Virus record (IMG/VR): IMGVR_UViG_3300020129_000672
Coordinates: 1-64,000 of that record
Direction: 5' to 3' (one strand)
Length of the DNA stretch: 64,000 nucleotides
Source: a virus
Made by a program: the position numbers and the translations under genes. The notes beneath the pieces were generated by a model that was not told the DNA's origin, searched no databases, and worked only from the letters and a program-made list of their open reading frames with translations. This document shows, one piece after another, positions 2,452 to 56,641 of this stretch. Each line of letters opens with the position of its first letter. Within the stretch, counting starts at the first letter, position 1.

Positions 2452-2711
2452 GGTTTTATATGTGTCTATTAATTGAGTTGCGTGCGAGACGTTATGGCCT
2501 CGATCGCACGGTCTGTCACACCGTGCTGCCCGAGGTCACTTGTTAGTAGTATTATTAAGGCGTATCGATTTCAGGATCTTTATGCACTTGATGCAGTTAA
2601 CAACATCGTCGTAGATTGTGTTTGGACAGACAGTTCCGCACAACGGTTTCCCGGGAGTTCGACCGCAAGTCACAGCGTTTATCACCCAGAATGATCGGGC
2701 GTGGAATCGTG

Positions 2712-3380
2712 TCAGCTTCTGCATATCGCCTCCGCTCGTTTAGCCGCTGTTCCGTGCGCGACGAACCCGACGATGACACTGCGGTCCGCCCGCTGACACA
2801 GCAGGCAGCTCTCGCAGGTGACACCCGCCCGGTACTGAGCGGGGCATAGCACGATCTTCCGACCGGCCGGGGTGTAGCTGGTGCGGGGTGTCCCACGGGG
2901 GACGACCACCACGACCGGGCCGCATTTCCATTCAGATAGGTTATCGGCCTCGGCCAACGTATCGGCACTCAGGTTGATGGTGAATCCCGATTGGTTTGCC
3001 CTATTGATGGCCGCCGAATCAGCGACTGTCAGAATCGGTTTGTGCGTGTAGGTCCAGCCACGACGCCCGGTATTTGCCGTCACCAGTTGGTTGAGCATCG
3101 GCCGATCAATCGTATCGCCCCAGCCCGGAAGGTCGCCCGCCTGATTATGACGCCATGGCTGACCGTCCGGCAGGTCCCTGATCTGTTGCAGGAAGGTCGG
3201 CCACCAACTGCCACGCTCGCCGCGGCTGACCGCCTGCCAGTGGTACTTAAGTGGCGGGAATTTGGCATAGCAGGTGTTGAACATTCCACACGATGGTGGG
3301 CAAGTGTAGGCCGGGCCTGTGCTGACAGGAATTTTTCCGGTCTTCCGGTTGTCTGACTTGAGTTGTAAATGGATTCTCAT
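2712..3380 (-). CDS. Cys-rich phage protein, gp88/DUF7227-like
   Basis: NRKTGKIPVS, TCPPSC..CYA, WRHNQAGDL, WTYTH, INLSAD, CPAQ..TCESCLLC, VGFVAHG. Confidence 0.75.
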   Translation of the reverse strand: MRIHLQLKSDNRKTGKIPVSTGPAYTCPPSCGMFNTCYAKFPPLKYHWQAVSRGERGSWWPTFLQQIRDLPDGQPWRHNQAGDLPGWGDTIDRPMLNQLVTANTGRRGWTYTHKPILTVADSAAINRANQSGFTINLSADTLAEADNLSEWKCGPVVVVVPRGTPRTSYTPAGRKIVLCPAQYRAGVTCESCLLCQRADRSVIVGFVAHGTAAKRAEAICRS

Positions 3381-3383
3381 AGG

Positions 3384-3710
3384 TCACCAGTTGAAGGTTG
3401 GAAGGCCGTCGATCACATCACCGTCCGGATCGAACCGGACATAGTAGTAACCGAGCTTGTCGAATTCGATGATGATCGTTTGGAGTTCTGGGCAATCGTT
3501 GAACGCCGAAGGATCTTGGTCTTCGACGCAGATGATGCATCCTTGGATGTCGTTTAATCCCGCCGGCTTGGTTAGTCGGCAGATGTCGAGCGAGACAGCG
3601 ACGTCAAACGAATTGACTGTCAGATGTGAAGTGCTGATTACTGGAACGACCATCAGCCACAGTCCTTCCATGGTTTTGGGAAGTGATTCCGCGCGAGGAT
3701 ATTTTATCAT
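3384..3710 (-). CDS. hypothetical protein (ISTSHLT...RFDPDG..IDGLPTF motif)
   Basis: In operon, with a CAACTCAA leader. Confidence 0.65.
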   Translation of the reverse strand: MIKYPRAESLPKTMEGLWLMVVPVISTSHLTVNSFDVAVSLDICRLTKPAGLNDIQGCIICVEDQDPSAFNDCPELQTIIIEFDKLGYYYVRFDPDGDVIDGLPTFNW

Positions 3711-3742
3711 AGCAATATTGAGTTGAGTTGTTGGTCGTTAGG

Positions 3743-4168
3743 TCAGCGCATGTCGTTCGCCATCGGGTTGGTCTTGGCCATCGCGTCAACCGCCATCCGA
3801 CTGTCGTGCGTGATGCCCATTGCCTGTAGGGCGAACGCATACGCGTCATTCATCGCCTCGTGCCGGAAGTCACTGCCGTCGGACGGGCACCAGGCGGAGA
3901 CCATGTGTTCAAGCGCCTCCTTATACGTCGGCCGGATCTCCAGCAGCTTGACCCGCTGCTTCTGTCTTTCGTGGCCGAGCGTTACGGTCTCTGCCAGATG
4001 CTGGGTGATCTTCCGATCATGATGCAGATCGTGAACGAACTGTGTCCAGTCGAGCACGACCTCTGGCGGGTAGTCAGATTGCGGCTTGTTCGGTCGGTAG
4101 TAGCGAGCGCGGTGTTCGCGGTGGTTATTCCAGAATAGGATCCGGACTTGCTGTTGAGTTGTGATCAT
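3743..4168 (-). CDS. hypothetical protein
   Basis: 141-aa ORF in the leftward operon. Confidence 0.6.
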   Translation of the reverse strand: MITTQQQVRILFWNNHREHRARYYRPNKPQSDYPPEVVLDWTQFVHDLHHDRKITQHLAETVTLGHERQKQRVKLLEIRPTYKEALEHMVSAWCPSDGSDFRHEAMNDAYAFALQAMGITHDSRMAVDAMAKTNPMANDMR

Positions 4169-4201
4169 AGTTTCTTTGTAATGTTGAAGTGAGTGGTGAA
4201 A

Positions 4202-6061
4202 TCAGTTGGCATGTCCAGTCATGACCATCAACGCCGTGCGGACGGACGTGCCTTGGTCTTCAAACATGCTTGGCCCAAGACTTTCCCACGACCGGCAGAT
4301 TGGACGCAGCGCCGACTGCTGACGTGGTCCATCGGCGCAGATGGCGACCAATAGTCCTTCTGGCTTGAGGTACGACCGCGCCCGTTGAATGTGCTTGATG
4401 TCCAGCCCGTTCTCGAACGGTGGGTTCATCACCACCCGATCAAACGACCGAAGTTCAAGTCCTTCGATTTCCAAGAAATCACCATCGATGATCTGAAAGT
4501 TCTGTTCGTTGGCGTACAGGCTGCGATTGCGAAGATCTTTCAACCCGGCGATCAGGCCTAGGTGGAGTTCGACCGCCACCAGTCGGAAGCAATCATGTCC
4601 GGTGCAGCGGTCGCGGATTGCGGTAATTAGGTTGCCGGTCCCGGCGCTCGGTTCGAGGATGCGTTGGCCGGCCATGATCTGGCCGGCGTTCATCATCCTC
4701 TTCGCTAGTTCTGGCGGGGTAGGGAATAACTGGTTGGCCGTCACGATCTTTACCCCGACCTTCGCTTGGTCCTTCAACGCTCGGAACTGTTCGTCCTTCG
4801 GGTCGACTGGCTTCGGTGTGTAAACTGGAGCTATCATCGGCGGTTGTGGCGTTGGCGTGACCGGCGCCGGCTTCTCGTGCACTTTCCCGTCGGTTAGGAA
4901 GATCGCAAACATCGACCGCTCACCATTGTTTCGGACGTACGCCACTCGCACGCGGTGTGAGTTTTCGACCACGCGAGTTCCCTTATAATCGCTGTTGATT
5001 GCCGCGTACTCAGCCTGCGTCATCGTCACTTGCTTCACCGTTTCGAATTCCCCACGGTGGTACACGCTTGGATAAGTGATGGTCGCCGCCTTGTAATTGC
5101 AGATCGGCAGTTGCGTCGGACGTTTCTTTTTCTCCAGCAGATGACTGGCGCCGGCATCATCTAGCATCGCTTTCTCGTACGCCAGGCGGTTGGTGTAGTG
5201 CTCGACCCAGCGCGCACAGTGGGTGATCGACCGCGGGTAAACTTCCTTCGCGGCTTCAAGAACTTCTTCCAAAGTGCGAGGTGCATAGAGGTTGGGATAG
5301 CTGTTGGTCAGAGCGGCATAGGCGCTTGGTCGTTGATCGAAATCCTTTCGATCGCCCTCCTTTCGGCGGAGTTTAATATCACCACCAGACGATCCGCCGG
5401 CGATAGCGATCGCACGCTCCATCCGCTTTTCCTCCGGAAGCTCCATCACGGAATCCCATAGATCGGCGTTGCGCTTAAACTCCGCGATGTTCCTTTGTTG
5501 CTTACGCAGATCGGCCTCCAGTCCTTTGATGCGGCGGGCTCGAACGTCCGGCTCGGCCTTGTAGTCGGCGTGGGCGCGCGCGCCGGCCGCTCGTTCAATC
5601 CAGTATTTCGATGTCTCCCACATCTTGACCGCACGATCCATTCCGTTCTGGATCTTCTCCGCGTCCTTCCGCGCCCGGCGTTCGGAGTGATGGCCGATCA
5701 GGATCGGTTGGCCGAGTGGTATGTGCCGGGTGATGCTGTCGACACCGGCTTTCGCGCGGTCGGCATCGGCCTCGCGTTTCTCGCTGTATTCCTTGAATCG
5801 GGCAGAGCGTTCGGTCGCTCGTTCGGCCATTGATACCGATTCGTCGCCGATATCACCGCACAGTTCCTCGGTCAAGTCGGCGCGACCGGGCGTCCACATC
5901 GGGGCGACGAACAGTTCCTGTTTGGGTGCCCAGCTGTAGCCGGCGGCCTTCACGCGCTCGTATGTTTTAGGATCGAGACGTGAGAACGGATAGATCCGGA
6001 GCTTGTTGTCCTCCGGACTGTAGGTGGCTGTCCCGATATAATTTGTTTCGTTTGTGTCCAT
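4202..6061 (-). CDS. DUF3560 domain fused to an amino (N6-A type) methyltransferase
   Basis: ATYSPEDNKLRIY and IPLGQPILIGHHSERRARKD (DUF3560); QLFPTPP, ILEPSAGTG, VMNPPF (methyltransferase motifs). Confidence 0.9.
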   Translation of the reverse strand: MDTNETNYIGTATYSPEDNKLRIYPFSRLDPKTYERVKAAGYSWAPKQELFVAPMWTPGRADLTEELCGDIGDESVSMAERATERSARFKEYSEKREADADRAKAGVDSITRHIPLGQPILIGHHSERRARKDAEKIQNGMDRAVKMWETSKYWIERAAGARAHADYKAEPDVRARRIKGLEADLRKQQRNIAEFKRNADLWDSVMELPEEKRMERAIAIAGGSSGGDIKLRRKEGDRKDFDQRPSAYAALTNSYPNLYAPRTLEEVLEAAKEVYPRSITHCARWVEHYTNRLAYEKAMLDDAGASHLLEKKKRPTQLPICNYKAATITYPSVYHRGEFETVKQVTMTQAEYAAINSDYKGTRVVENSHRVRVAYVRNNGERSMFAIFLTDGKVHEKPAPVTPTPQPPMIAPVYTPKPVDPKDEQFRALKDQAKVGVKIVTANQLFPTPPELAKRMMNAGQIMAGQRILEPSAGTGNLITAIRDRCTGHDCFRLVAVELHLGLIAGLKDLRNRSLYANEQNFQIIDGDFLEIEGLELRSFDRVVMNPPFENGLDIKHIQRARSYLKPEGLLVAICADGPRQQSALRPICRSWESLGPSMFEDQGTSVRTALMVMTGHAN

Positions 6062-47283: not shown

Positions 47284-47791
47284 GGGGTTCAAAATTCTGG
47301 TCGCCCTGGCGGCCTTGTTGCTGGTTGCCGCCGTTCCGCAAAAGACGGTGGTGATTCCGCCGGTTATTACCGTCACGCCGGCGACAGGCGCACCACCAAC
47401 CCAAGTGTCGGTCAAACCGACGACCATAAGGTGGGGAAATTATCTTTGGGCCGGCGCGCCCGATGCGGCCCCGAAATTCGTGGAGTTTGATCTGGCAGGC
47501 CGAAGTCCGTTGTTCGTCGATTGGAATCGGTCGGTGGCGACCAATCTGGTTGGAGACTATCTTTTCAAGTCAAGGCGGGGAGCCCGTCAGGTGTTTTGGG
47601 TGGCTGATCAGTTGCTTAAAAATCGACAAACCACATTTACCAGCAGTGGATTTCCCGTCGGGTTTGATCCCGGGGACGATCAGGCACACCAATCGCTGAC
47701 CATTCAGAAAGTGCCGGGTAAGGTCTACGTAACGTCCGATCGCAATGGCGGGAGTTATGTGGTGAGTGTAAAGCAAACACCTAATCGATGA
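47273..47791 (+). CDS. signal-peptide protein paralogous to the C-terminus of 46231..47283
   Basis: MSHKGFKILVALAALLLVAA; shared motifs RWGN..GAP.AAP.FVE and DPGD...TSDRNGGSY. Confidence 0.75.
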   Translation: MSHKGFKILVALAALLLVAAVPQKTVVIPPVITVTPATGAPPTQVSVKPTTIRWGNYLWAGAPDAAPKFVEFDLAGRSPLFVDWNRSVATNLVGDYLFKSRRGARQVFWVADQLLKNRQTTFTSSGFPVGFDPGDDQAHQSLTIQKVPGKVYVTSDRNGGSYVVSVKQTPNR

Positions 47792-50526
47792 AGACCGTTC
47801 GTCTGTTCTTTTTTTTTCTCCTGATTTTTCGGGCGTTTCCGCAAGCGACTCCCCCGCAGTATCCCTATCCTGATCCGCTTCCAATTTCGGGCGACATCCC
47901 GTCCCTCCATAGCCTCAAGGTAACGAAGGCTATCACCCCTACGGCCTATGAGGATGAGCGGCCGGTCGTGTGGGATGATTTTGTTGGTGGTGGTTATCAC
48001 ACGTGCCTCAACGGAACAGAGCGCGATAATATACTGCAGGGCCGCCGGAAGGAGGGGATGCTCGTTTGGGTGGCGTTCGACAATCATACATACCGTTTGG
48101 CGTCGGACCTGACGACCTGGACCGATCTGGGGATCCTTGCCGCCGGTGGGAGTGTCACCACGATCTACACCGGAAACGGCACATTGGCAGGAAACAGAAC
48201 GATCACCGGATCGAACTTCAATCTCGATCTGGTTGGGCTTGGAAATTTTAGCGCGCTGGCCAATACATCGATCACACTGGCGGCGCCGACCATCACGCTC
48301 AACGGTGGGAGTTTTACTCGGATCAACAACAGCGGGCCCTATCCCTTTCTGTTCGCCGCCGCTCCGTCAGTCGCCGGATCAACCCATCAATTGCTGGCCC
48401 GCAATCCTTCGACCGGGGAAGTGACATTCACACCCGACGCAACGATCGGTGGGTCGTCCGGTGTTTATCGCGGCGTGACGTCTGGGACGCCCGGATTTTG
48501 GGTGGCCGCCACTTCTGCACTGACCCCTCCCTACAGTAGCGCCAGCCAGCCGCCAGAGGCCACTGTGGCGGTCCTGAAGTTCCCGTCCAACTCGGTTGGC
48601 AACGATACGCTCCAGTTGGGCGACAGCACGACCGGCATCGCGATCAAGCGAAAGGACGGAAGCGCCGTTCAGGCGGATGACATCACGGCCGGTCAGTACA
48701 TTCTGTTTACCCGGGCGGGCACCCTATCTGGCGCCCACTGGACGTGCGAGTCGTGTGGCCAGGGAGGATCACCCTCACCGGACGTCAACGGCGTGGTGTC
48801 GGTCGATACCATTTCGGAGCTCATCAATTCGACGGCCAACGTGGTTATCACTCGCGGGTACTACACCATAGGTGACGGCGGTCACGGAGCTTATCGGCTG
48901 GATACTGCGGCGGTTGACGCTACGAACACGGTGACGACCTTCGAGGCGGCGACCGGTCGGTACTTCCTGATGCAAAGTGGATCGATCAGCGCCTTGCAGG
49001 CGGGGGCGCCGACTGATGGAACGACCGATGCCGGTCCGTACCTTCAGGCGCTGCTCGATGCCTGTCCGAACCTGACGGCTCGGATTGATCCCTTTCCCTA
49101 CCGGGTAGTCGGACAGCTGAACCCACCAGATGACGTCAAGGTGATTGCCCGCGGTGCGACTCTCACGATCGAAACGACGTCTGAGTGCGGAGTGGCTGTC
49201 AGTTCTAATTTCATCTGGGACGGCGGAACGGTCGTTGATGCTGCTCAGGACGGGGGATCGTCCGATAATGTACACTGTCCGTTTCGATTCGGGGATTATA
49301 GCGGAGTATCCAATGCTGGGGTCAGCAATTCGACGATCCGAAATGTTACTTTTTACTCAACTGGCTATGACGGAGTCGGGGCGCTTGTCACTCAAAATAG
49401 CCATAACATTACGATTGAACATTTTGAAATCCCGAACAACAGTTCGATGGGTGGCGGGATCGAAGTGCACTGGGGATATGTGACGTCCGGAAATGCCGCG
49501 TTAGGTACCAGGCACCCGCATGGAGTGAAGGTCAGCCAGGGACATATTGGAAACCTCACTCACTCCGATTCGGCCGGTCTGATCGTCTCCGCCAGTTACA
49601 GCCTGCAGTACGACAATGTGACGATCGACCAGTGCCGGTATCCGATCTTTGCCGTCTGTGGTGATTTTGGGTTTCATTACTCGGGCTTTCAGGGGCAGCA
49701 ACTTGGTTCGGTTGTATATCGGACTGTCACCTGTCTCGATTCATTGTTGGCCGGTGCGTACGTCCGAGGCTTGGATTCCGACTCGATTCAGCGGACGGTC
49801 AATTACGTGATCGACAGCTGCACTCTAATCGGCCCGAACGCCGGGGCCGGTTTGGGCGGCCTGTATCTCGATAACGTCCGGAACCTGACGGTCCAGAACT
49901 CGGTTATCTCCGTTCATCAATATGGGACGGTCCTGACCAACGGGTGTTCAAATATCGGTCTGATCGGAAATCTTTTCACGACCAACGCACTGGGTGGGAT
50001 CGTCCTATCTGACCCGAGTAGTAGTGGGGTGACCGTCAGGGGTAATCGGCTGCAGAACAATTGTGCCAGCCTGAGTGGCACTAATGCGGCGGCCATCAGA
50101 ATCGTTGCTGGCAGCAACCACCGGATCATCGATAACGACATTGGAAACCCAATTACCGAGGCCAACCAGGAGGTGGGCATTCTGTGTATTCCGCCGGCCA
50201 GCAACATTACGATTACGGGCAATAACGTGATCAACGTGAAGGGTGGAGGAGTTAGCGAAGGTTACTATCTTGGTAATGCTGCAGACTTTGGTCATCTCTG
50301 GCTAGTATCTGGAAATCAATCCAACTCAACTACTCTGATGGCCGTGCCGCAGAATCTCCCGTTCTTGGTCAGGGGTAAGTACCGAACTTTTGCGGGCACC
50401 ACCACACCGAGCGTTGGGACATTTATCAAGGGAGATCGTGTGGAGTTCAATGAAGCGACTTCTACGCCGTTTGCCATTATCTGCACGACTGGCGGATCAA
50501 GCGGGAGCTGGGCAACAATTTACTGA
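47788..50526 (+). CDS. tail spike/depolymerase with a right-handed beta-helix and an N-terminal signal-like peptide
   Basis: RGYYTIGDGGHG, GAPTDGTTDAGPYLQALLD, N/G-rich parallel beta-helix repeats. Confidence 0.8.
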   Translation: MKTVRLFFFFLLIFRAFPQATPPQYPYPDPLPISGDIPSLHSLKVTKAITPTAYEDERPVVWDDFVGGGYHTCLNGTERDNILQGRRKEGMLVWVAFDNHTYRLASDLTTWTDLGILAAGGSVTTIYTGNGTLAGNRTITGSNFNLDLVGLGNFSALANTSITLAAPTITLNGGSFTRINNSGPYPFLFAAAPSVAGSTHQLLARNPSTGEVTFTPDATIGGSSGVYRGVTSGTPGFWVAATSALTPPYSSASQPPEATVAVLKFPSNSVGNDTLQLGDSTTGIAIKRKDGSAVQADDITAGQYILFTRAGTLSGAHWTCESCGQGGSPSPDVNGVVSVDTISELINSTANVVITRGYYTIGDGGHGAYRLDTAAVDATNTVTTFEAATGRYFLMQSGSISALQAGAPTDGTTDAGPYLQALLDACPNLTARIDPFPYRVVGQLNPPDDVKVIARGATLTIETTSECGVAVSSNFIWDGGTVVDAAQDGGSSDNVHCPFRFGDYSGVSNAGVSNSTIRNVTFYSTGYDGVGALVTQNSHNITIEHFEIPNNSSMGGGIEVHWGYVTSGNAALGTRHPHGVKVSQGHIGNLTHSDSAGLIVSASYSLQYDNVTIDQCRYPIFAVCGDFGFHYSGFQGQQLGSVVYRTVTCLDSLLAGAYVRGLDSDSIQRTVNYVIDSCTLIGPNAGAGLGGLYLDNVRNLTVQNSVISVHQYGTVLTNGCSNIGLIGNLFTTNALGGIVLSDPSSSGVTVRGNRLQNNCASLSGTNAAAIRIVAGSNHRIIDNDIGNPITEANQEVGILCIPPASNITITGNNVINVKGGGVSEGYYLGNAADFGHLWLVSGNQSNSTTLMAVPQNLPFLVRGKYRTFAGTTTPSVGTFIKGDRVEFNEATSTPFAIICTTGGSSGSWATIY

Positions 50527-51625: not shown

Positions 51626-51940
51626 ATGGCTCCGCCCGTCAAACAAAACACCAATGTCGTTATCACGACGTTGATCTTGGCGGCGTTTATTCCAACGCTT
51701 TCTTCGATTGCGACTTATATTCAGAGCCGGGCATCGGCCGCTACGGTTGAAAAAGTACACGAGCTGGTGAATAGTAAGAGCGATGCCCAGACCGCTCAGA
51801 TTAAGGAACTCATTCAGGCCAACAAAGATCTGGCATCCAAGCTGGCGGTGCTTGAAGAACGGCTTAGGCCGATACCGGAATCGACCAAGACTACGACTTT
51901 AACTGACGAGCAATTAAATCGCCTGATAAATAGAAAGTAA
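51626..51940 (+). CDS. holin-like TM plus coiled-coil protein
   Basis: One TM segment, then VHELVNS and a coiled coil. Confidence 0.55.
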   Translation: MAPPVKQNTNVVITTLILAAFIPTLSSIATYIQSRASAATVEKVHELVNSKSDAQTAQIKELIQANKDLASKLAVLEERLRPIPESTKTTTLTDEQLNRLINRK

Positions 51941-51944
51941 TTAT

Positions 51945-52121
51945 ATGTCTCTAGGATTATGCTTTTGGATTTTGATGATGTTATGGCTTGTGTTTGGACT
52001 TTGGTCTAACTGGCCAGCCACTGGATCATCTGGAATTCGACCGTTGGGTGGAACCTTGTTACTATTTTTTGTAATTTTTATACTTGGATGGGCTCAATTT
52101 GGGCCTCCTGTTCATCGGTGA
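51945..52121 (+). CDS. 58-aa two-TM membrane protein (not in the ORF track)
   Basis: MSLGLCFWILMMLWLVFGLWSNWPATGSSGIRPLGGTLLLFFVIFILGWAQFGPPVHR. Confidence 0.8.
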   Translation: MSLGLCFWILMMLWLVFGLWSNWPATGSSGIRPLGGTLLLFFVIFILGWAQFGPPVHR

Positions 52122-52123
52122 CT

Positions 52124-52963
52124 ATGACCGGAATATACATGATTAGGAATACGATGAGCGGTAGACAATATGTCGGATCTGCGTTGAACATACATCAACG
52201 GTGGCATTCTCATCGATCTTTGCTTTCCAAAGGAAAGCATCACTCGGTTACTTTGCAGCGTTCATGGATAAAACATTCTCCCGAGGCGTTTTTGTTTGAA
52301 ATATTGGAGCAGGTTGAGGATGCCAACCAACTTGTTCCTCGTGAGCAGTTCTGGATCGACAAACTTAACTCAGCTTGCCCGCGTACTGGATTCAATATAT
52401 CACCAACGGCTGGAAGCCCGCTTGGAGTAAAGCACTCTTTTGAAACTCGTGCCAAGATGTCAGCAATTAGAAAAGGAGTAAAGTTTGGGCCACAAAGCGA
52501 CGCTCACAAAGCCGCGTTGAGAAAGTCGAGACTTGGAACAAAGCATTCGCTTGCAACTCGATGTAAAATGTCAGCAGCGCGAAAGGGTGTTCCAAAACCT
52601 CCGTTTAGCGAGGATCACAAAGCTGCAATGAGCTTAGCAAGGTTACGGTACGAAAGCGATACGGGAAGAACGGCTATAAGAAACAAATCGGATCATATGC
52701 GTGAGATGGTTAGGGCATCTAAAATTAAGCGTTATTCCACACCAGAAGGGATTGAAGAATTAAGATCTATGGCCATAAAACGGTGGGCAATTAAAAGATT
52801 ATCAGGAGAACCGCTTGGCCGTCCGATGTCTGATGAAACAAAGCTTAAATTAAGCATTGCTGAGAAAGGAAAAATGACAGACCAACACAAAGCTGCAATC
52901 GCGGCAAGCAATCGAAGACGATCAACTTCAAATCACGCATTCGGTCCACCGATCCATAACTAA
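52124..52963 (+). mobile_element. GIY-YIG homing endonuclease with NUMOD3-like repeats
   Basis: MTGIYMIRN...YVGSA...RW..H...REQFWID; HS.ETRAKMS-type repeats; low GC. Confidence 0.93.
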
Positions 52964-52995
52964 GTTGGTCCGCTATCGGACCGATATGCTATTGA

Positions 52996-53340
52996 ATGAA
53001 AAGCTTTTCCTCAGATTCGAAAAGCAACATACTGTCGGTACTAATCGATGGTATGGCGACGAATAAAAAAATGACGGCCAGCCACCGGGCGTTTGTCTGG
53101 CTGGCGCTTGGTTCATTGATCGGTGGAATGATCGATGTACGAGGTTCGCTCGCGCCGTTGGCCAAACTGCCGCTTGTGCTATCGACCTTGGAGGAACACA
53201 CGGCCGAACTGAAGGAACTCCGAAAATTACGGGAGGAAGACCATCGGGCGTTGGAGGAGGTTAAGGATATTTTGCGGCGTAACAAGCTGGCGGCCGGCCA
53301 GGATGAAAAAGGCCTATCAACCGTTAAATATTCCGAATGA
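52996..53340 (+). CDS. TM plus coiled-coil protein (holin/lysis-associated?)
   Basis: AFVWLALGSLIGG followed by a coiled coil. Confidence 0.5.
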   Translation: MKSFSSDSKSNILSVLIDGMATNKKMTASHRAFVWLALGSLIGGMIDVRGSLAPLAKLPLVLSTLEEHTAELKELRKLREEDHRALEEVKDILRRNKLAAGQDEKGLSTVKYSE

Positions 53341-53461: not shown

Positions 53462-56400
53462 ATGAAAGCTAAATATCTATTTTTAATTTCAATGCTGCTG
53501 ATGACCGCACTGACGGTCGTTGGGCAGATCACGCCACCGCAGTACCCGTATCCGGATCCGCTGCCGGCCTCTGGTGATATTCCTAATCTTCACAGTCTGA
53601 AGGTGACAAAGGCGCTGAGCACAACCGCCTATGAGGATGAGCGTCCAGTGGTGTGGGATGATTTCATTGGTGGTGGTATGCGATCGGTCGGTTCGACGAA
53701 CGAGCGGAATGCGATTGTTCAAGGTCGACGGAAGGAGGGAATGATGGTGATGGTGAAGTCTGTAAGTCCGGATACCAATGCTTTTGGACTTTACATGCTT
53801 CTGAAGGGGATCAGCAACACCAATTGGTACAAGATCGCTGACATCACGACGACCAACGGTTTTAACATACCGTCCCTGAAGTCGGTGAATATCTTTAACA
53901 GCGACGGTCAGTTGACGACCAACCGATTGCTGAGTGGCGTTGGGACGTATTCGCTGGGTCTGGCGGGACTCACGGGGTTCAACACGTCGGCCGATAGTTC
54001 TCTAATACAGGCAAACAACCAGAATGTGGTTGGGCTTAATAACCTGACACTAGCGTCGCTCGATCAACTTGATTTATTGGCGCCAAACATATCGATCACC
54101 AGTTCGAACAGTTTTTTGTCGCTCGACCATAACTCAACAACGGTCGGTGCCTATGGTACTAATGGTCTGATTATATTAACTCCGGCAGTTCATGCGACTA
54201 CCGCCACTGCCGGGCAGGTCCTGACGTTGATCGACACGAATGGGATTGCTGATTTTGCAACGATCACCGGTGGAACAAACGTCTTTAACATCACGTACAC
54301 CACGAACTACGTGAATGATAACTTCGCCAACACCGACCTGACGTTCACGGGGAACCGGACGCATGATGCGGCGGGGAATAGTTTAGCTATTGATAACATT
54401 TCTACTCTTCAATTATTTGGATCAAGTTTGGCTCAAATTAGATTTCCTTTTATTCAAGTAGACTTGTCCGGAGGAGGAGAAGGAGAAGGATTGTCAATTG
54501 CTAATTCTCCAAATATATCAATAGATGGAGATGGAATGTTCAACGGAGGATTTTTTGTTGGGTCTGGTACTCCAATGTATGGAATAACTCTCGCCAGTAG
54601 TGGCGATGTTATTTCTCTTGACGTCGATACAACGCAAGGAATAGCATTTAAGAACAAGCAAATCCATGATGGTGTCGCCACTCTAGGTCAGGTTTGGACA
54701 CTAACGAACGTCACTACTGGGAAAGGTGTTTGGGCCAACCCGCCCGCCGGACAGAACTTCGCGAATGCGGATTTGACGGCGACTGGTGATAGATACCACG
54801 ATTTCACTGGGTATCGCTTAACAATTAACAGCCCTCGCGGTTTTTCAGTAAATTCTATTGATGACACTTTAAGTATTGGTTCTAACTACGAATTAGATAT
54901 TTCAACTCCAGATGTTAATAACACAGCGTTGGTTGGCCAATACCTTCAGCTTCAAACTGCTGACGCGGGTGCTGTGGAATACCAAACCATCTACTTCAAA
55001 GGCACCGCAACCGACTCCGGTGGCGGAGCGTTCGTTGCCGCAACGGCCTCAATCGTTCCGGCCTACAACGATTCGTCTGATCCGCCGGAGTTCATGCAGT
55101 TCTACATGAAACCGACGTCCGATGCGGTGGCTGATAGTCAACTTCAATTAGGTGACAGTGGAAGTCCTCATTACATAACACGTAAGGATGGCGTGACGCA
55201 CCTGGCTGATGGTGATTTCAAAGCTGGCGCGACGATCATGTTGACGATGGTCGATAGTGGGGCAGGCGCTCATTGGGTGTGCGAGAGTTGTGGAGGTGGC
55301 GGTGGACAGAACATAGCCAACGCCAATCTTACATTTGATGGTTCTCACACAACCGATGCTGCCGGTTATGATTTCAGCTTAAATAATGTCGCTAATCTTA
55401 GTCTTGGAGGTTCTAGCTCAATATCTGCATCTTTGGGCGGAGGTGTTCAAGCGCAAATTAGCAGTTCGGCCGCGCAATTCCTAATCGTTACAAATACCAT
55501 TCAGATGAATACTCTGACTGGAGACATATATATGGTAGATCAGGATGTATATGGCGGTAGTTCAACTAATGGAATGGTGTTGACGATGATTGATCAAACA
55601 ACCGGTAAAGTGGGATTTAGGAATGCGTCTGGTGGCTCATCAACTAATTTTGCAAACGCCAACCTCACAGCGACCGCCAGCCGGGTCCACGATTGGGCGG
55701 GCCACAATCTGACGATCGAGAATCTGCTGTCGTTCACGATGAGCGATCTTACTGGATCATACATTCAGGTCGGGCCCGCCATTTATCTTTCTAACGGAGC
55801 TGGCACGAGCTTTATCAACATGACGGACAGTGAGACGGAGATTGGTGGAACCAGCACGAACGGTATCAGGCTATTTTCCAAGGGGGTCAATAATGCCACG
55901 GTATCCACCAACTGGGTGTGGACGTTGCTGAACGCCGCGACGGGCGCCGGTGAATGGGTGGCGGGCAGGAATATGTTCGATGCAAATGGAACACTGGCGG
56001 GGAATCGCGTGGTTTCTGGCGGTGGTCATAGCCTTACCTTCCAAACCGCGCTCTCTGATTTTAATGTGCTGGCGACGAATGTCATTTCCCAGGCGAGCTT
56101 GAACAACACGATTAATGGCGCATTGATCGGGATGACCGCCAGTTCGTCGGTGACGGTCAATACGCCACTTTTCACAATCAACAACAGTAGCGCCGATGAC
56201 TTCCTTTTTACCTCGACGCCTAATGACGGTACGGACGCCGATCATACGCTCGAACGAAACCCATCGACGGGCGAGGTGCGGTGGAATACCGGCCGGTTTG
56301 TCTTTCCGCGGACGGGCGTCCCGTCGGTCGCCGCCGGTACGGGTGCTGGTACTGGGCCGACCGTTACGCTCGTCCGTCAAAGTGATTCGGCGTTCACCCT

Positions 56401-56641
56401 CAGTGTCATTCCCGGATCGACGCCGGCTGTCAATGCGACGGTTGCGACCGTGACGTTCGCCAGCGCCTATGCGGCGGCCCCTCATTGGTCGCTGGCGGCC
56501 GGTAATGCAGCGACCGCTCTACTGTCGGGCAACAGCGCCTGCTACGGTCAATCGACGACCACCACCTTTGTGTTGAAGAGCGGCCCGACGGCGCTTACTC
56601 AAAGTACGACCTACCTTTTTGAAGTGATAATCGTAAAGTAA
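53462..56641 (+). CDS. long tail-fibre-like repeat protein with a signal peptide
   Basis: MKAKYLFLISMLLMTALTVVG; ~6 repeats of NFANxxLTxxxxRxHD; N-domain shared with 47788. Confidence 0.8.
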   Translation: MKAKYLFLISMLLMTALTVVGQITPPQYPYPDPLPASGDIPNLHSLKVTKALSTTAYEDERPVVWDDFIGGGMRSVGSTNERNAIVQGRRKEGMMVMVKSVSPDTNAFGLYMLLKGISNTNWYKIADITTTNGFNIPSLKSVNIFNSDGQLTTNRLLSGVGTYSLGLAGLTGFNTSADSSLIQANNQNVVGLNNLTLASLDQLDLLAPNISITSSNSFLSLDHNSTTVGAYGTNGLIILTPAVHATTATAGQVLTLIDTNGIADFATITGGTNVFNITYTTNYVNDNFANTDLTFTGNRTHDAAGNSLAIDNISTLQLFGSSLAQIRFPFIQVDLSGGGEGEGLSIANSPNISIDGDGMFNGGFFVGSGTPMYGITLASSGDVISLDVDTTQGIAFKNKQIHDGVATLGQVWTLTNVTTGKGVWANPPAGQNFANADLTATGDRYHDFTGYRLTINSPRGFSVNSIDDTLSIGSNYELDISTPDVNNTALVGQYLQLQTADAGAVEYQTIYFKGTATDSGGGAFVAATASIVPAYNDSSDPPEFMQFYMKPTSDAVADSQLQLGDSGSPHYITRKDGVTHLADGDFKAGATIMLTMVDSGAGAHWVCESCGGGGGQNIANANLTFDGSHTTDAAGYDFSLNNVANLSLGGSSSISASLGGGVQAQISSSAAQFLIVTNTIQMNTLTGDIYMVDQDVYGGSSTNGMVLTMIDQTTGKVGFRNASGGSSTNFANANLTATASRVHDWAGHNLTIENLLSFTMSDLTGSYIQVGPAIYLSNGAGTSFINMTDSETEIGGTSTNGIRLFSKGVNNATVSTNWVWTLLNAATGAGEWVAGRNMFDANGTLAGNRVVSGGGHSLTFQTALSDFNVLATNVISQASLNNTINGALIGMTASSSVTVNTPLFTINNSSADDFLFTSTPNDGTDADHTLERNPSTGEVRWNTGRFVFPRTGVPSVAAGTGAGTGPTVTLVRQSDSAFTLSVIPGSTPAVNATVATVTFASAYAAAPHWSLAAGNAATALLSGNSACYGQSTTTTFVLKSGPTALTQSTTYLFEVIIVK

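Follow-up and report, generated by a model that had tools for sequence, protein, structure and literature searches.

Here, we describe a locus in a 64,000-nucleotide stretch of phage DNA (the window; positions 1 to 64,000 of IMG/VR record IMGVR_UViG_3300020129_000672) at which a mobile cassette, composed of a replacement 3' end and a GIY-YIG/NUMOD3 homing-endonuclease gene, probably occupies the 3' end of a conserved phage membrane gene; we put the probability of this reading at about 0.7. The membrane gene stays complete because the cassette supplies its last ~10 codons and stop codon, and the nuclease gene reads in frame into a displaced tail, here called the relic, and uses its stop. From comparisons with related proteins and loci, the layout is inherited within one nuclease sub-clade, with the carried tails related to each other and the relics seeming to resemble whichever natural allele was invaded. 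The phage genome is a 77,210-bp record with direct terminal repeats, rated complete, of which the window is the first 64 kb, and the locus lies on the + strand, flanked by two large fibre/spike genes (coordinates of all features in Table 1).

The open reading frame (ORF) of the membrane gene encodes 58 amino acids (aa) and ends in GCT CAA TTT GGG CCT CCT GTT CAT CGG TGA (AQFGPPVHR and stop; tail 1), with the ATG of the nuclease 2 nt past this TGA. The 279-codon nuclease ORF in turn ends in CAC GCA TTC GGT CCA CCG ATC CAT AAC TAA (HAFGPPIHN and stop), so that the two tails and the gap before the nuclease lie where the original prediction, made from the letters of the window, had placed them. 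The gene caller begins the nuclease at an ATG at 52088 (291 aa), and homologues instead begin at the MTGIY position. In a six-frame translation of the 64-kb window, the pattern FG[PA]P[IVL][HRK]x followed by a stop occurs twice, at the two tails of the locus, and in none of 200 shuffles; the duplicated tail is therefore real rather than a product of chance. The endonuclease ORF lies within the 3' part of the membrane gene and is flanked by two copies of that gene's C-terminus, both in the window and in a second locus from a metagenome (L108, described below). The upstream tail completes the membrane protein in frame, giving an end-to-end alignment with 22 homologues in which all invariant family residues are kept.

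This anatomy bears directly on a reading in which a group I intron (or an intein) holds the nuclease and the true protein joined LGW to HAFGPPIHN, as could be supposed from the many relatives automatically named 'group I intron endonuclease' and from I-TevI, which is itself intron-encoded. We regard it as scarcely credible: no Rfam intron matched at E <= 1 between 51400 and 53500, tail 1 already forms a whole conserved family C-terminus and carries a stop, just 2 nt between the tails lie outside the nuclease ORF, too few for an intron core, and an intein is excluded since the nuclease and the upstream gene are read in different frames.

The membrane gene belongs to a family with 22 members in the protein collection and at least 302 viral loci in IMG/VR. 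Its members end in LGWxxFG[PA]P[IVL][HRK]x and a stop (the nearest homologue of the 58-aa protein, P0001, has the C-terminus LGWHSFGPPIHN); this is the native C-terminus of the family, and HAFGPPIHN at the end of the nuclease is its paralogue, as originally proposed. Presence of the nuclease at this site is sporadic: all 86 of the 86 viral loci inspected (L003-L008, L028-L107) are endonuclease-free, with the next gene following directly, and the site is occupied in the window and L108. Natural ends of the HAFGPPIH type are present in the endonuclease-free alleles L051, L056, L062, L070 and L107. No Pfam or PHROG model covers the family, no match to the membrane protein was found among 50,697 deposited phage genomes (INPHARED), and prokaryote genomes yielded just three weak homologues, in metagenome-assembled genomes of Planctomycetota, Alcaligenaceae and Bryobacteraceae; the Atlas clusters that match the protein are viral and named 'hypothetical protein'.

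The nuclease gene is intact and encodes an I-TevI-like GIY-YIG/NUMOD3 homing endonuclease. Pfam GIY-YIG (PF01541) matches at 4e-10, exceeding its cut-off, NUMOD3 matches at 1.7e-14 in three stretches, and phrog_314 ('homing endonuclease') matches residues 2-243 at 7e-32. Structures of the I-TevI catalytic domain (1MK0/1LN0) match at 4e-16, with GIY, YVG, R26, E74 and N91 all kept. Relatives in INPHARED are 42-50% identical and come from Xanthomonas and Pseudomonas phages. The membrane gene was absent at the IMG/VR loci of nuclease relatives, in sets of 19 and 80 loci, and a protein search with nuclease residues 232-279 returned solely the nuclease itself.

Among 255 relatives of the nuclease, a tail-like C-terminus is found in 7 protein entries, representing 5 distinct nucleases. 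The tail-bearing entries comprise the nuclease of the window (P0023), the L108 form (P0143/P0144, ending VLGWKVFGAPLHS), P0046 (ending AVFGPALHR), P0029 (WQTFGAAVK) and P0145 (LVFGPAIHS), and P0027 has a degenerate tail ending ALPAIHN. Close relatives that have no tail end a few residues past the conserved HKAAIAASN[KR], and the spacing after SN[KR]R measures 14 residues in each of the window, L108 and P0046. In a quick maximum-likelihood tree, all six relic-bearing proteins fall within one 11-row clade with a Shimodaira-Hasegawa-like approximate likelihood ratio test (SH-aLRT) value of 85, and four of them form a group with a value of 94; clustering this tight arose in only 1 of 500 label shuffles. 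FGPPIH is therefore no general ending of GIY-YIG proteins, a possibility on which the original prediction could have foundered. The occupied layout is inferred also for P0145, P0029, P0046 and P0027 from their proteins. For P0145, an N-terminal extension back-translates in the membrane frame to GWxxFGP[AV]IH[KR] and a stop, with an ATGA overlap with the nuclease ATG, and this back-read protein suggests a third full example.

The retention of the tail in several related nucleases despite their divergence to ~50% identity would also be expected if it were an intrinsic functional C-terminal motif of the nuclease family, with a merely convergent likeness to the membrane protein. Such a motif is highly improbable, given that 248 of the 255 relatives have no tail, that P0024 has none although it is 99% identical to the L108 nuclease, and that genuine membrane-gene ends match the L108 relic at 87-91% of nucleotides, with the stop codon at the same position.

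L108, a 2,208-bp contig, was the only one of 80 loci in a metagenome scan with the same layout. Its membrane gene encodes 53 aa and ends in LLGWAQFGAPIRG and a stop (also given as LGWAQFGAPIRG and a stop). Its nuclease is 55% identical to that of the window, begins at a GTG overlapping the membrane-gene stop by 8 nt (GTGGCTAG), and ends in AASNKRR-VLGWKVFGAPLHS and a stop, with a lysozyme gene 12 nt further on. The L108 relic (nt 1183-1222) shares 87.5% and 91% nucleotide identity with the genuine 3' ends in L049 and L087, respectively, matching L087 at 24/27 nt. In L108, the flanking genes have a G+C content at third codon positions (GC3) of 0.70-0.80 and the membrane-gene body one of 0.68; tail 1 (0.54) and the nuclease (0.49) lie lower, and the relic reaches 0.86. 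Tail 1 and the nuclease therefore form the foreign block, and the relic belongs to the resident genome. P0024 and the L108 nuclease are identical at 229/231 residues and then diverge completely past AASNKR (ELYR and stop vs RVLGWKV), which sets the right-hand limit of the mobile unit at the border between nuclease and relic.

To assign the tails as carried or resident, their 27 sense nt were compared codon by codon with each other and with 60 natural alleles. In the window, tail 1 and the relic are identical at 13/27 nt and differ at all four synonymous third positions of F, G, P and P; tail 1 of L108 likewise matches its own relic at 13/27 nt, and the two tail-1 copies match each other at 19/27 nt. 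Against the natural alleles, the relics score a mean of 16.5-16.7/27 nt and the tail-1 copies 13.8/27. Thus the endonuclease-free alleles (67 distinct 3' ends) are nearer to the downstream version, as had been predicted, and not to the upstream one. The sequence CAA TTT GGG (CAATTTGGG) is common to both occupied alleles and present in 0 of the 67 natural alleles. The window relic is best matched by GWHAFGPPIHG alleles (L070 at 21/27, L051 at 20/27), and the two relics belong to different natural tail subtypes. Best natural-allele scores in the window are 21/27 for the relic and 19/27 for tail 1, with no close empty relative to compare. Together, GC3, the likeness of the relics to natural alleles, and the P0024 identity that ends at the nuclease/relic border support the view that tail 1 moves together with the nuclease and that the downstream copy is a resident relic; this is also how the original prediction had assigned them, with the original tail fused to the nuclease and a replacement upstream.

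Equal length and a stop at the same position are what would be seen if both tails came from the resident gene through target-site or tandem duplication at insertion and later diverged. This local origin is very unlikely: tail 1 of the window is nearer to tail 1 of L108 than to its own relic, the two copies in L108 differ in GC3 (0.54 vs 0.86), natural alleles match the relics and not the tail-1 copies, and break-repair homing by GIY-YIG endonucleases produces no target-site duplication (PMC2988022).

In the window itself, the neighbouring genes have GC3 values of 0.55-0.64 and the sequence downstream 0.58; within the locus the values are 0.35 (membrane-gene body), 0.2 (tail 1), 0.38 (nuclease) and 0.5 (relic). 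Across 66 endonuclease-free loci, GC3 of the membrane gene tracks the GC of the locus (r = 0.87), and the L108 gene lies on this trend (z = -0.5). The window gene, at 0.33 vs 0.58 predicted from local GC, falls 4.1 standard deviations under it (z = -4.1), and therefore the whole membrane gene, beyond its tail, seems to have been imported with the nuclease. A longer co-conversion tract would give such whole-gene import. The claim that the invasion supplied a replacement 3' end is largely supported, with the qualification that the block imported in the window appears to be the whole gene rather than its end.

An apparently wholly imported gene also fits a different account, in which a free-standing endonuclease that normally sits downstream of the membrane gene was joined by accident, in a one-off illegitimate recombination, to the resident last codons, since block replacement would then suffice. 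The duplicated tail would be a scar that serves neither mobility nor immunity, and the nuclease might have its real target elsewhere. Free-standing phage endonucleases are usually intergenic and cut at a distance (PMC2988022), and related nucleases sit beside the same gene in other layouts in two further loci, L051 and L109. In L051, a NUMOD3-only remnant of a related endonuclease (2573-3016), which has no GIY-YIG domain and ends in EANRRRS, has the large terminase gene on one side and, on the other, a complete membrane gene of the HAFGPPIHG type (3001-3186), its RRRS end three codons ahead of the membrane-gene ATG; this is a different link, apparently a decayed one, between this nuclease clade and this gene family. 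In L109, a nuclease on the + strand (3953-4600; 53% identical over residues 1-173) stands head to head with a membrane homologue on the - strand (3689-3934; ending IGWKEFGFIIHG and stop), a third kind of neighbourhood tying the nuclease group to the membrane-gene family. Even so, the accident is an improbable explanation, as the in-frame relic fusion recurs in at least 5 divergent nucleases (45-63% identity) of one clade, the 14-residue spacing past SN[KR]R is shared by the window, L108 and P0046, and in L108 the gene body is resident with only tail 1 and the nuclease foreign. Relics of different natural subtypes further point to repeated invasions, against a single inherited scar. A one-off scar is possible for the window alone, and fits poorly with the recurrence.

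Several points weigh against invasion by a cassette that carries its own gene end. Occupied alleles are available as DNA in two cases only (the window and L108), the others being protein-only, and the nuclease tree is a quick one with moderate support (SH-aLRT 85-95). The arrangements in L051 and L109 indicate that insertion at the 3' end is not the sole mode. The window relic is just 10 codons long, and its GC3 of 0.5 does not discriminate. The residues STSN that precede it are unlike LGW, so the exact junction either differs from that of L108 or has decayed. The codon differences between the tails, on which the proposed recoding was based, are real, yet with four synonymous sites only they are indistinguishable from ordinary saturation, leaving selection for recoding unproven. 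Searches of IMG/VR found no relatives of either small neighbour (104 aa upstream, 114 aa downstream) or of the fibre N-terminus, and with no near-identical endonuclease-free relative the empty site and both junctions are those that we infer; a short blastn search with the 60-nt window relic region gave no significant match, the query being too short.

Taking the cassette reading as the working model, the steps would follow from break-repair homing as described for GIY-YIG endonucleases (PMC2988022). The nuclease would cut endonuclease-free alleles of the membrane gene near the GW/FGPP region, and during co-infection the break would be repaired from the occupied genome, copying the cassette in as a form of intron-less homing. 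The membrane-gene body would serve as the left homology arm, and the right arm would be formed by the relic and the DNA that follows it. To the right of the cut, the tail of the recipient would survive as the new relic, so that the relic would be renewed at each invasion; this would account for the young look of the relics and for their match to different natural subtypes when the nucleases themselves are only ~50% identical. Co-conversion could take in more of the gene leftward, and in this phage may have taken in all of it. The nucleotide differences of the carried tail are predicted to let it escape cleavage, and we propose that the tail and the relic, having no long exact match, resist deletion by repeat recombination. 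The nuclease would be translated by coupling to the membrane gene, as suggested by how closely the two genes adjoin: they are 2 nt apart in the window and overlap by 8 nt in L108 and, as back-read, by ATGA in P0145. Movement as a unit is suggested by the 99%-identical nuclease with a different right junction (P0024), by the relatedness of the tail-1 copies and by the clustering of the clade. We lean slightly towards the fuller proposal that a phage GIY-YIG lineage has specialised on one holin-like membrane gene, with homing free of intron or intein through cleavage-immune carried last 10-14 codons, translational coupling, and a renewed relic that forms the C-terminus and stop of the nuclease.

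The closest known systems are the mobile ORFs (mORFs) of fungal mitochondria, which carry a foreign C-terminus and make hybrid genes, as in atp6 of Allomyces macrogynus, atp6, atp9, cox2 and nad3 of Glomus sp., atp9 of Rhizopus and cox2 of Mortierella (PMC3630166); the precedent invoked for a carried 3' end is thus documented. As in the mORFs, the endonuclease ORF lies in the 3' part of the host gene, with an in-frame replacement C-terminus upstream and the native C-terminus displaced downstream, the displaced copy is nearer to the native sequence of relatives than the carried copy is (in L108, with the same trend in the window), and the Glomus atp9 enzyme is likewise GIY-YIG. Here, however, the host is a bacteriophage rather than an organelle, the target is a 58-aa membrane gene, and the duplicated piece is just 10-14 codons. 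The phage nuclease also differs in being in another frame than the upstream gene, starting 2 nt past its stop (probably coupled), in using the stop of the relic, and in a layout that is a trait of a whole nuclease sub-clade.

Among phage enzymes, the GIY-YIG Seg endonucleases of T4-like phages (PMC2988022) are similar in pairing an I-TevI-like GIY-YIG domain with modular DNA-binding repeats and no intron or intein, in their sporadic presence among related genomes, and in the expected co-conversion of flanking DNA, with which the imported membrane gene is consistent. Seg genes are intergenic and need no coding replacement, whereas insertion here is within coding sequence and offset by the carried gene end; the T4 review makes no mention of duplication (PMC2988022). 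Free-standing endonuclease genes also lie within coding regions, with no intron, in the gene-splitting cases of mobE in Aeh1 nrdA, mobA in T4 gene 39/60 and seg in phage 25 gene 43 (PMC2988022), but there the host protein is split into two polypeptides that reassemble, while here it remains a single polypeptide, and what is left of the resident end is joined to the nuclease. I-TevI of the td intron shares the homologous catalytic domain with its conserved GIY/YVG/Arg/Glu/Asn residues, and differs in being intron-encoded and in its zinc finger and helix-turn-helix, which are not matched here, NUMOD3 repeats being present instead. Within the limited library of phage literature searched, intron/intein-borne, intergenic and gene-splitting endonucleases are described, and a carried gene end was not found.

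Table 1. Features of the membrane-gene/endonuclease locus, in window coordinates.
Position	Strand	Feature	Basis or remark
51626..51940	+	Upstream neighbour, 104 aa: N-terminal hydrophobic helix, then coiled-coil-like part	No Pfam/PHROG match; syntenic analogue in L006
51900..52933	+	Low-GC block (~0.33-0.49 vs 0.5-0.6 in flanks); probable extent of imported/co-converted DNA	Composition profile and GC3; left border approximate
51945..52121	+	58-aa two-helix membrane gene, putatively holin-like, complete	ORF; homologues; GC3 foreign in this phage, like that of the nuclease
52092..52121	+	Tail 1, probable carried replacement 3' end: AQFGPPVHR + TGA	Matches family C-terminus GWxxFG[PA]P[IVL]Hx and stop
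52122..52123	+	2-nt spacer between membrane-gene stop and nuclease ATG (52124); probable translational coupling	Sequence reading
52124..52933	+	GIY-YIG + NUMOD3 I-TevI-like free-standing homing endonuclease core, without its own stop codon	Pfam, PHROG and I-TevI matches
52934..52963	+	Probable relic of resident membrane-gene 3' end: HAFGPPIHN + TAA, in frame with the nuclease and providing its stop	Sequence; likeness to natural alleles
52996..53340	+	Downstream neighbour, 114 aa: hydrophobic segment and charged helical C-terminal part; 32 nt past the relic stop	No Pfam/PHROG match; GC3 0.58, resident-like

A holin-like role for the 58-aa protein, in whose sequence two hydrophobic stretches can be read, is possible because the membrane gene adjoins a GH24-type lysozyme and a lipoprotein gene in L108, and at a few more loci has peptidoglycan hydrolases beside it (in L095 and L096, a lysozyme). 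Such hydrolases make up ~6 of 88 ORFs neighbouring membrane-family genes, and the gene in the window lies between fibre genes with no lysin adjoining. The two small proteins that bracket it are alike in having a single hydrophobic segment and a long, charged stretch that resembles a coiled coil, and a similar pair (4236-4553, 4589-4936) precedes the membrane homologue in L006. Along with the lysozyme/lipoprotein context in L108, these bracketing proteins hint at an envelope-disruption or lysis-related cassette.

Other features were noted at the locus and among the nuclease relatives. A promoter/terminator scan of the locus gave nothing exceeding shuffles; a 6-bp inverted repeat (GGTCCG-CTAT-CGGACC, 52967-52982) lies 4 nt past the relic stop and, having no T-run, was not called a terminator. 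The large flanking genes encode a 912-aa spike-like protein (47788-50526) and a 1059-aa fibre-like protein (53462-56641), both with a signal-peptide-like hydrophobic N-terminus followed by a near-identical segment (..TPPQYPYPDPLP.SGDIP.LHSLKVTKA..YEDERPVVWDDF.GGG..). A motif of the QLxLxF/QLSLF type occurs in the last 12 residues of 25 of 254 related GIY-YIG/NUMOD3 endonucleases, at ~30x its rate elsewhere in these proteins; carriers include the L109 nuclease (3953-4600, ending SQLSLF and stop), P0031, P0032, P0034, P0037, P0041, P0042, P0045, P0170, P0178, P0211, P0235, P0254 and others. It looks like a beta-sliding-clamp-binding motif, and it could alternatively, by analogy with the relics described here, be a relic of the end of another invaded gene; in the literature searched, no paper combined the terms 'homing endonuclease' and 'clamp-binding motif'.

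Homing endonucleases influence how co-infecting phages recombine and exclude each other's markers, and this locus shows how such an enzyme can settle in a conserved coding sequence, without any splicing element and without harm to the host gene, by bringing a spare end for that gene. So far documented in fungal mitochondria, the mechanism is here extended to bacteriophages; if the reading is correct, it would be the first case in phages of hybrid-gene formation in the manner of mitochondrial mORFs, and would add to introns/inteins, intergenic sites and gene splitting a fourth mode by which phage endonucleases occupy essential sequence. The system is compact, with a ~40-bp target whose predicted natural immune and sensitive versions are adjacent in one genome. 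For annotation, odd C-terminal extensions on endonuclease ORFs can be relics of invaded genes, and such relics may be used to infer the target of the nuclease. The small membrane gene is marked as a conserved and probably important phage gene.

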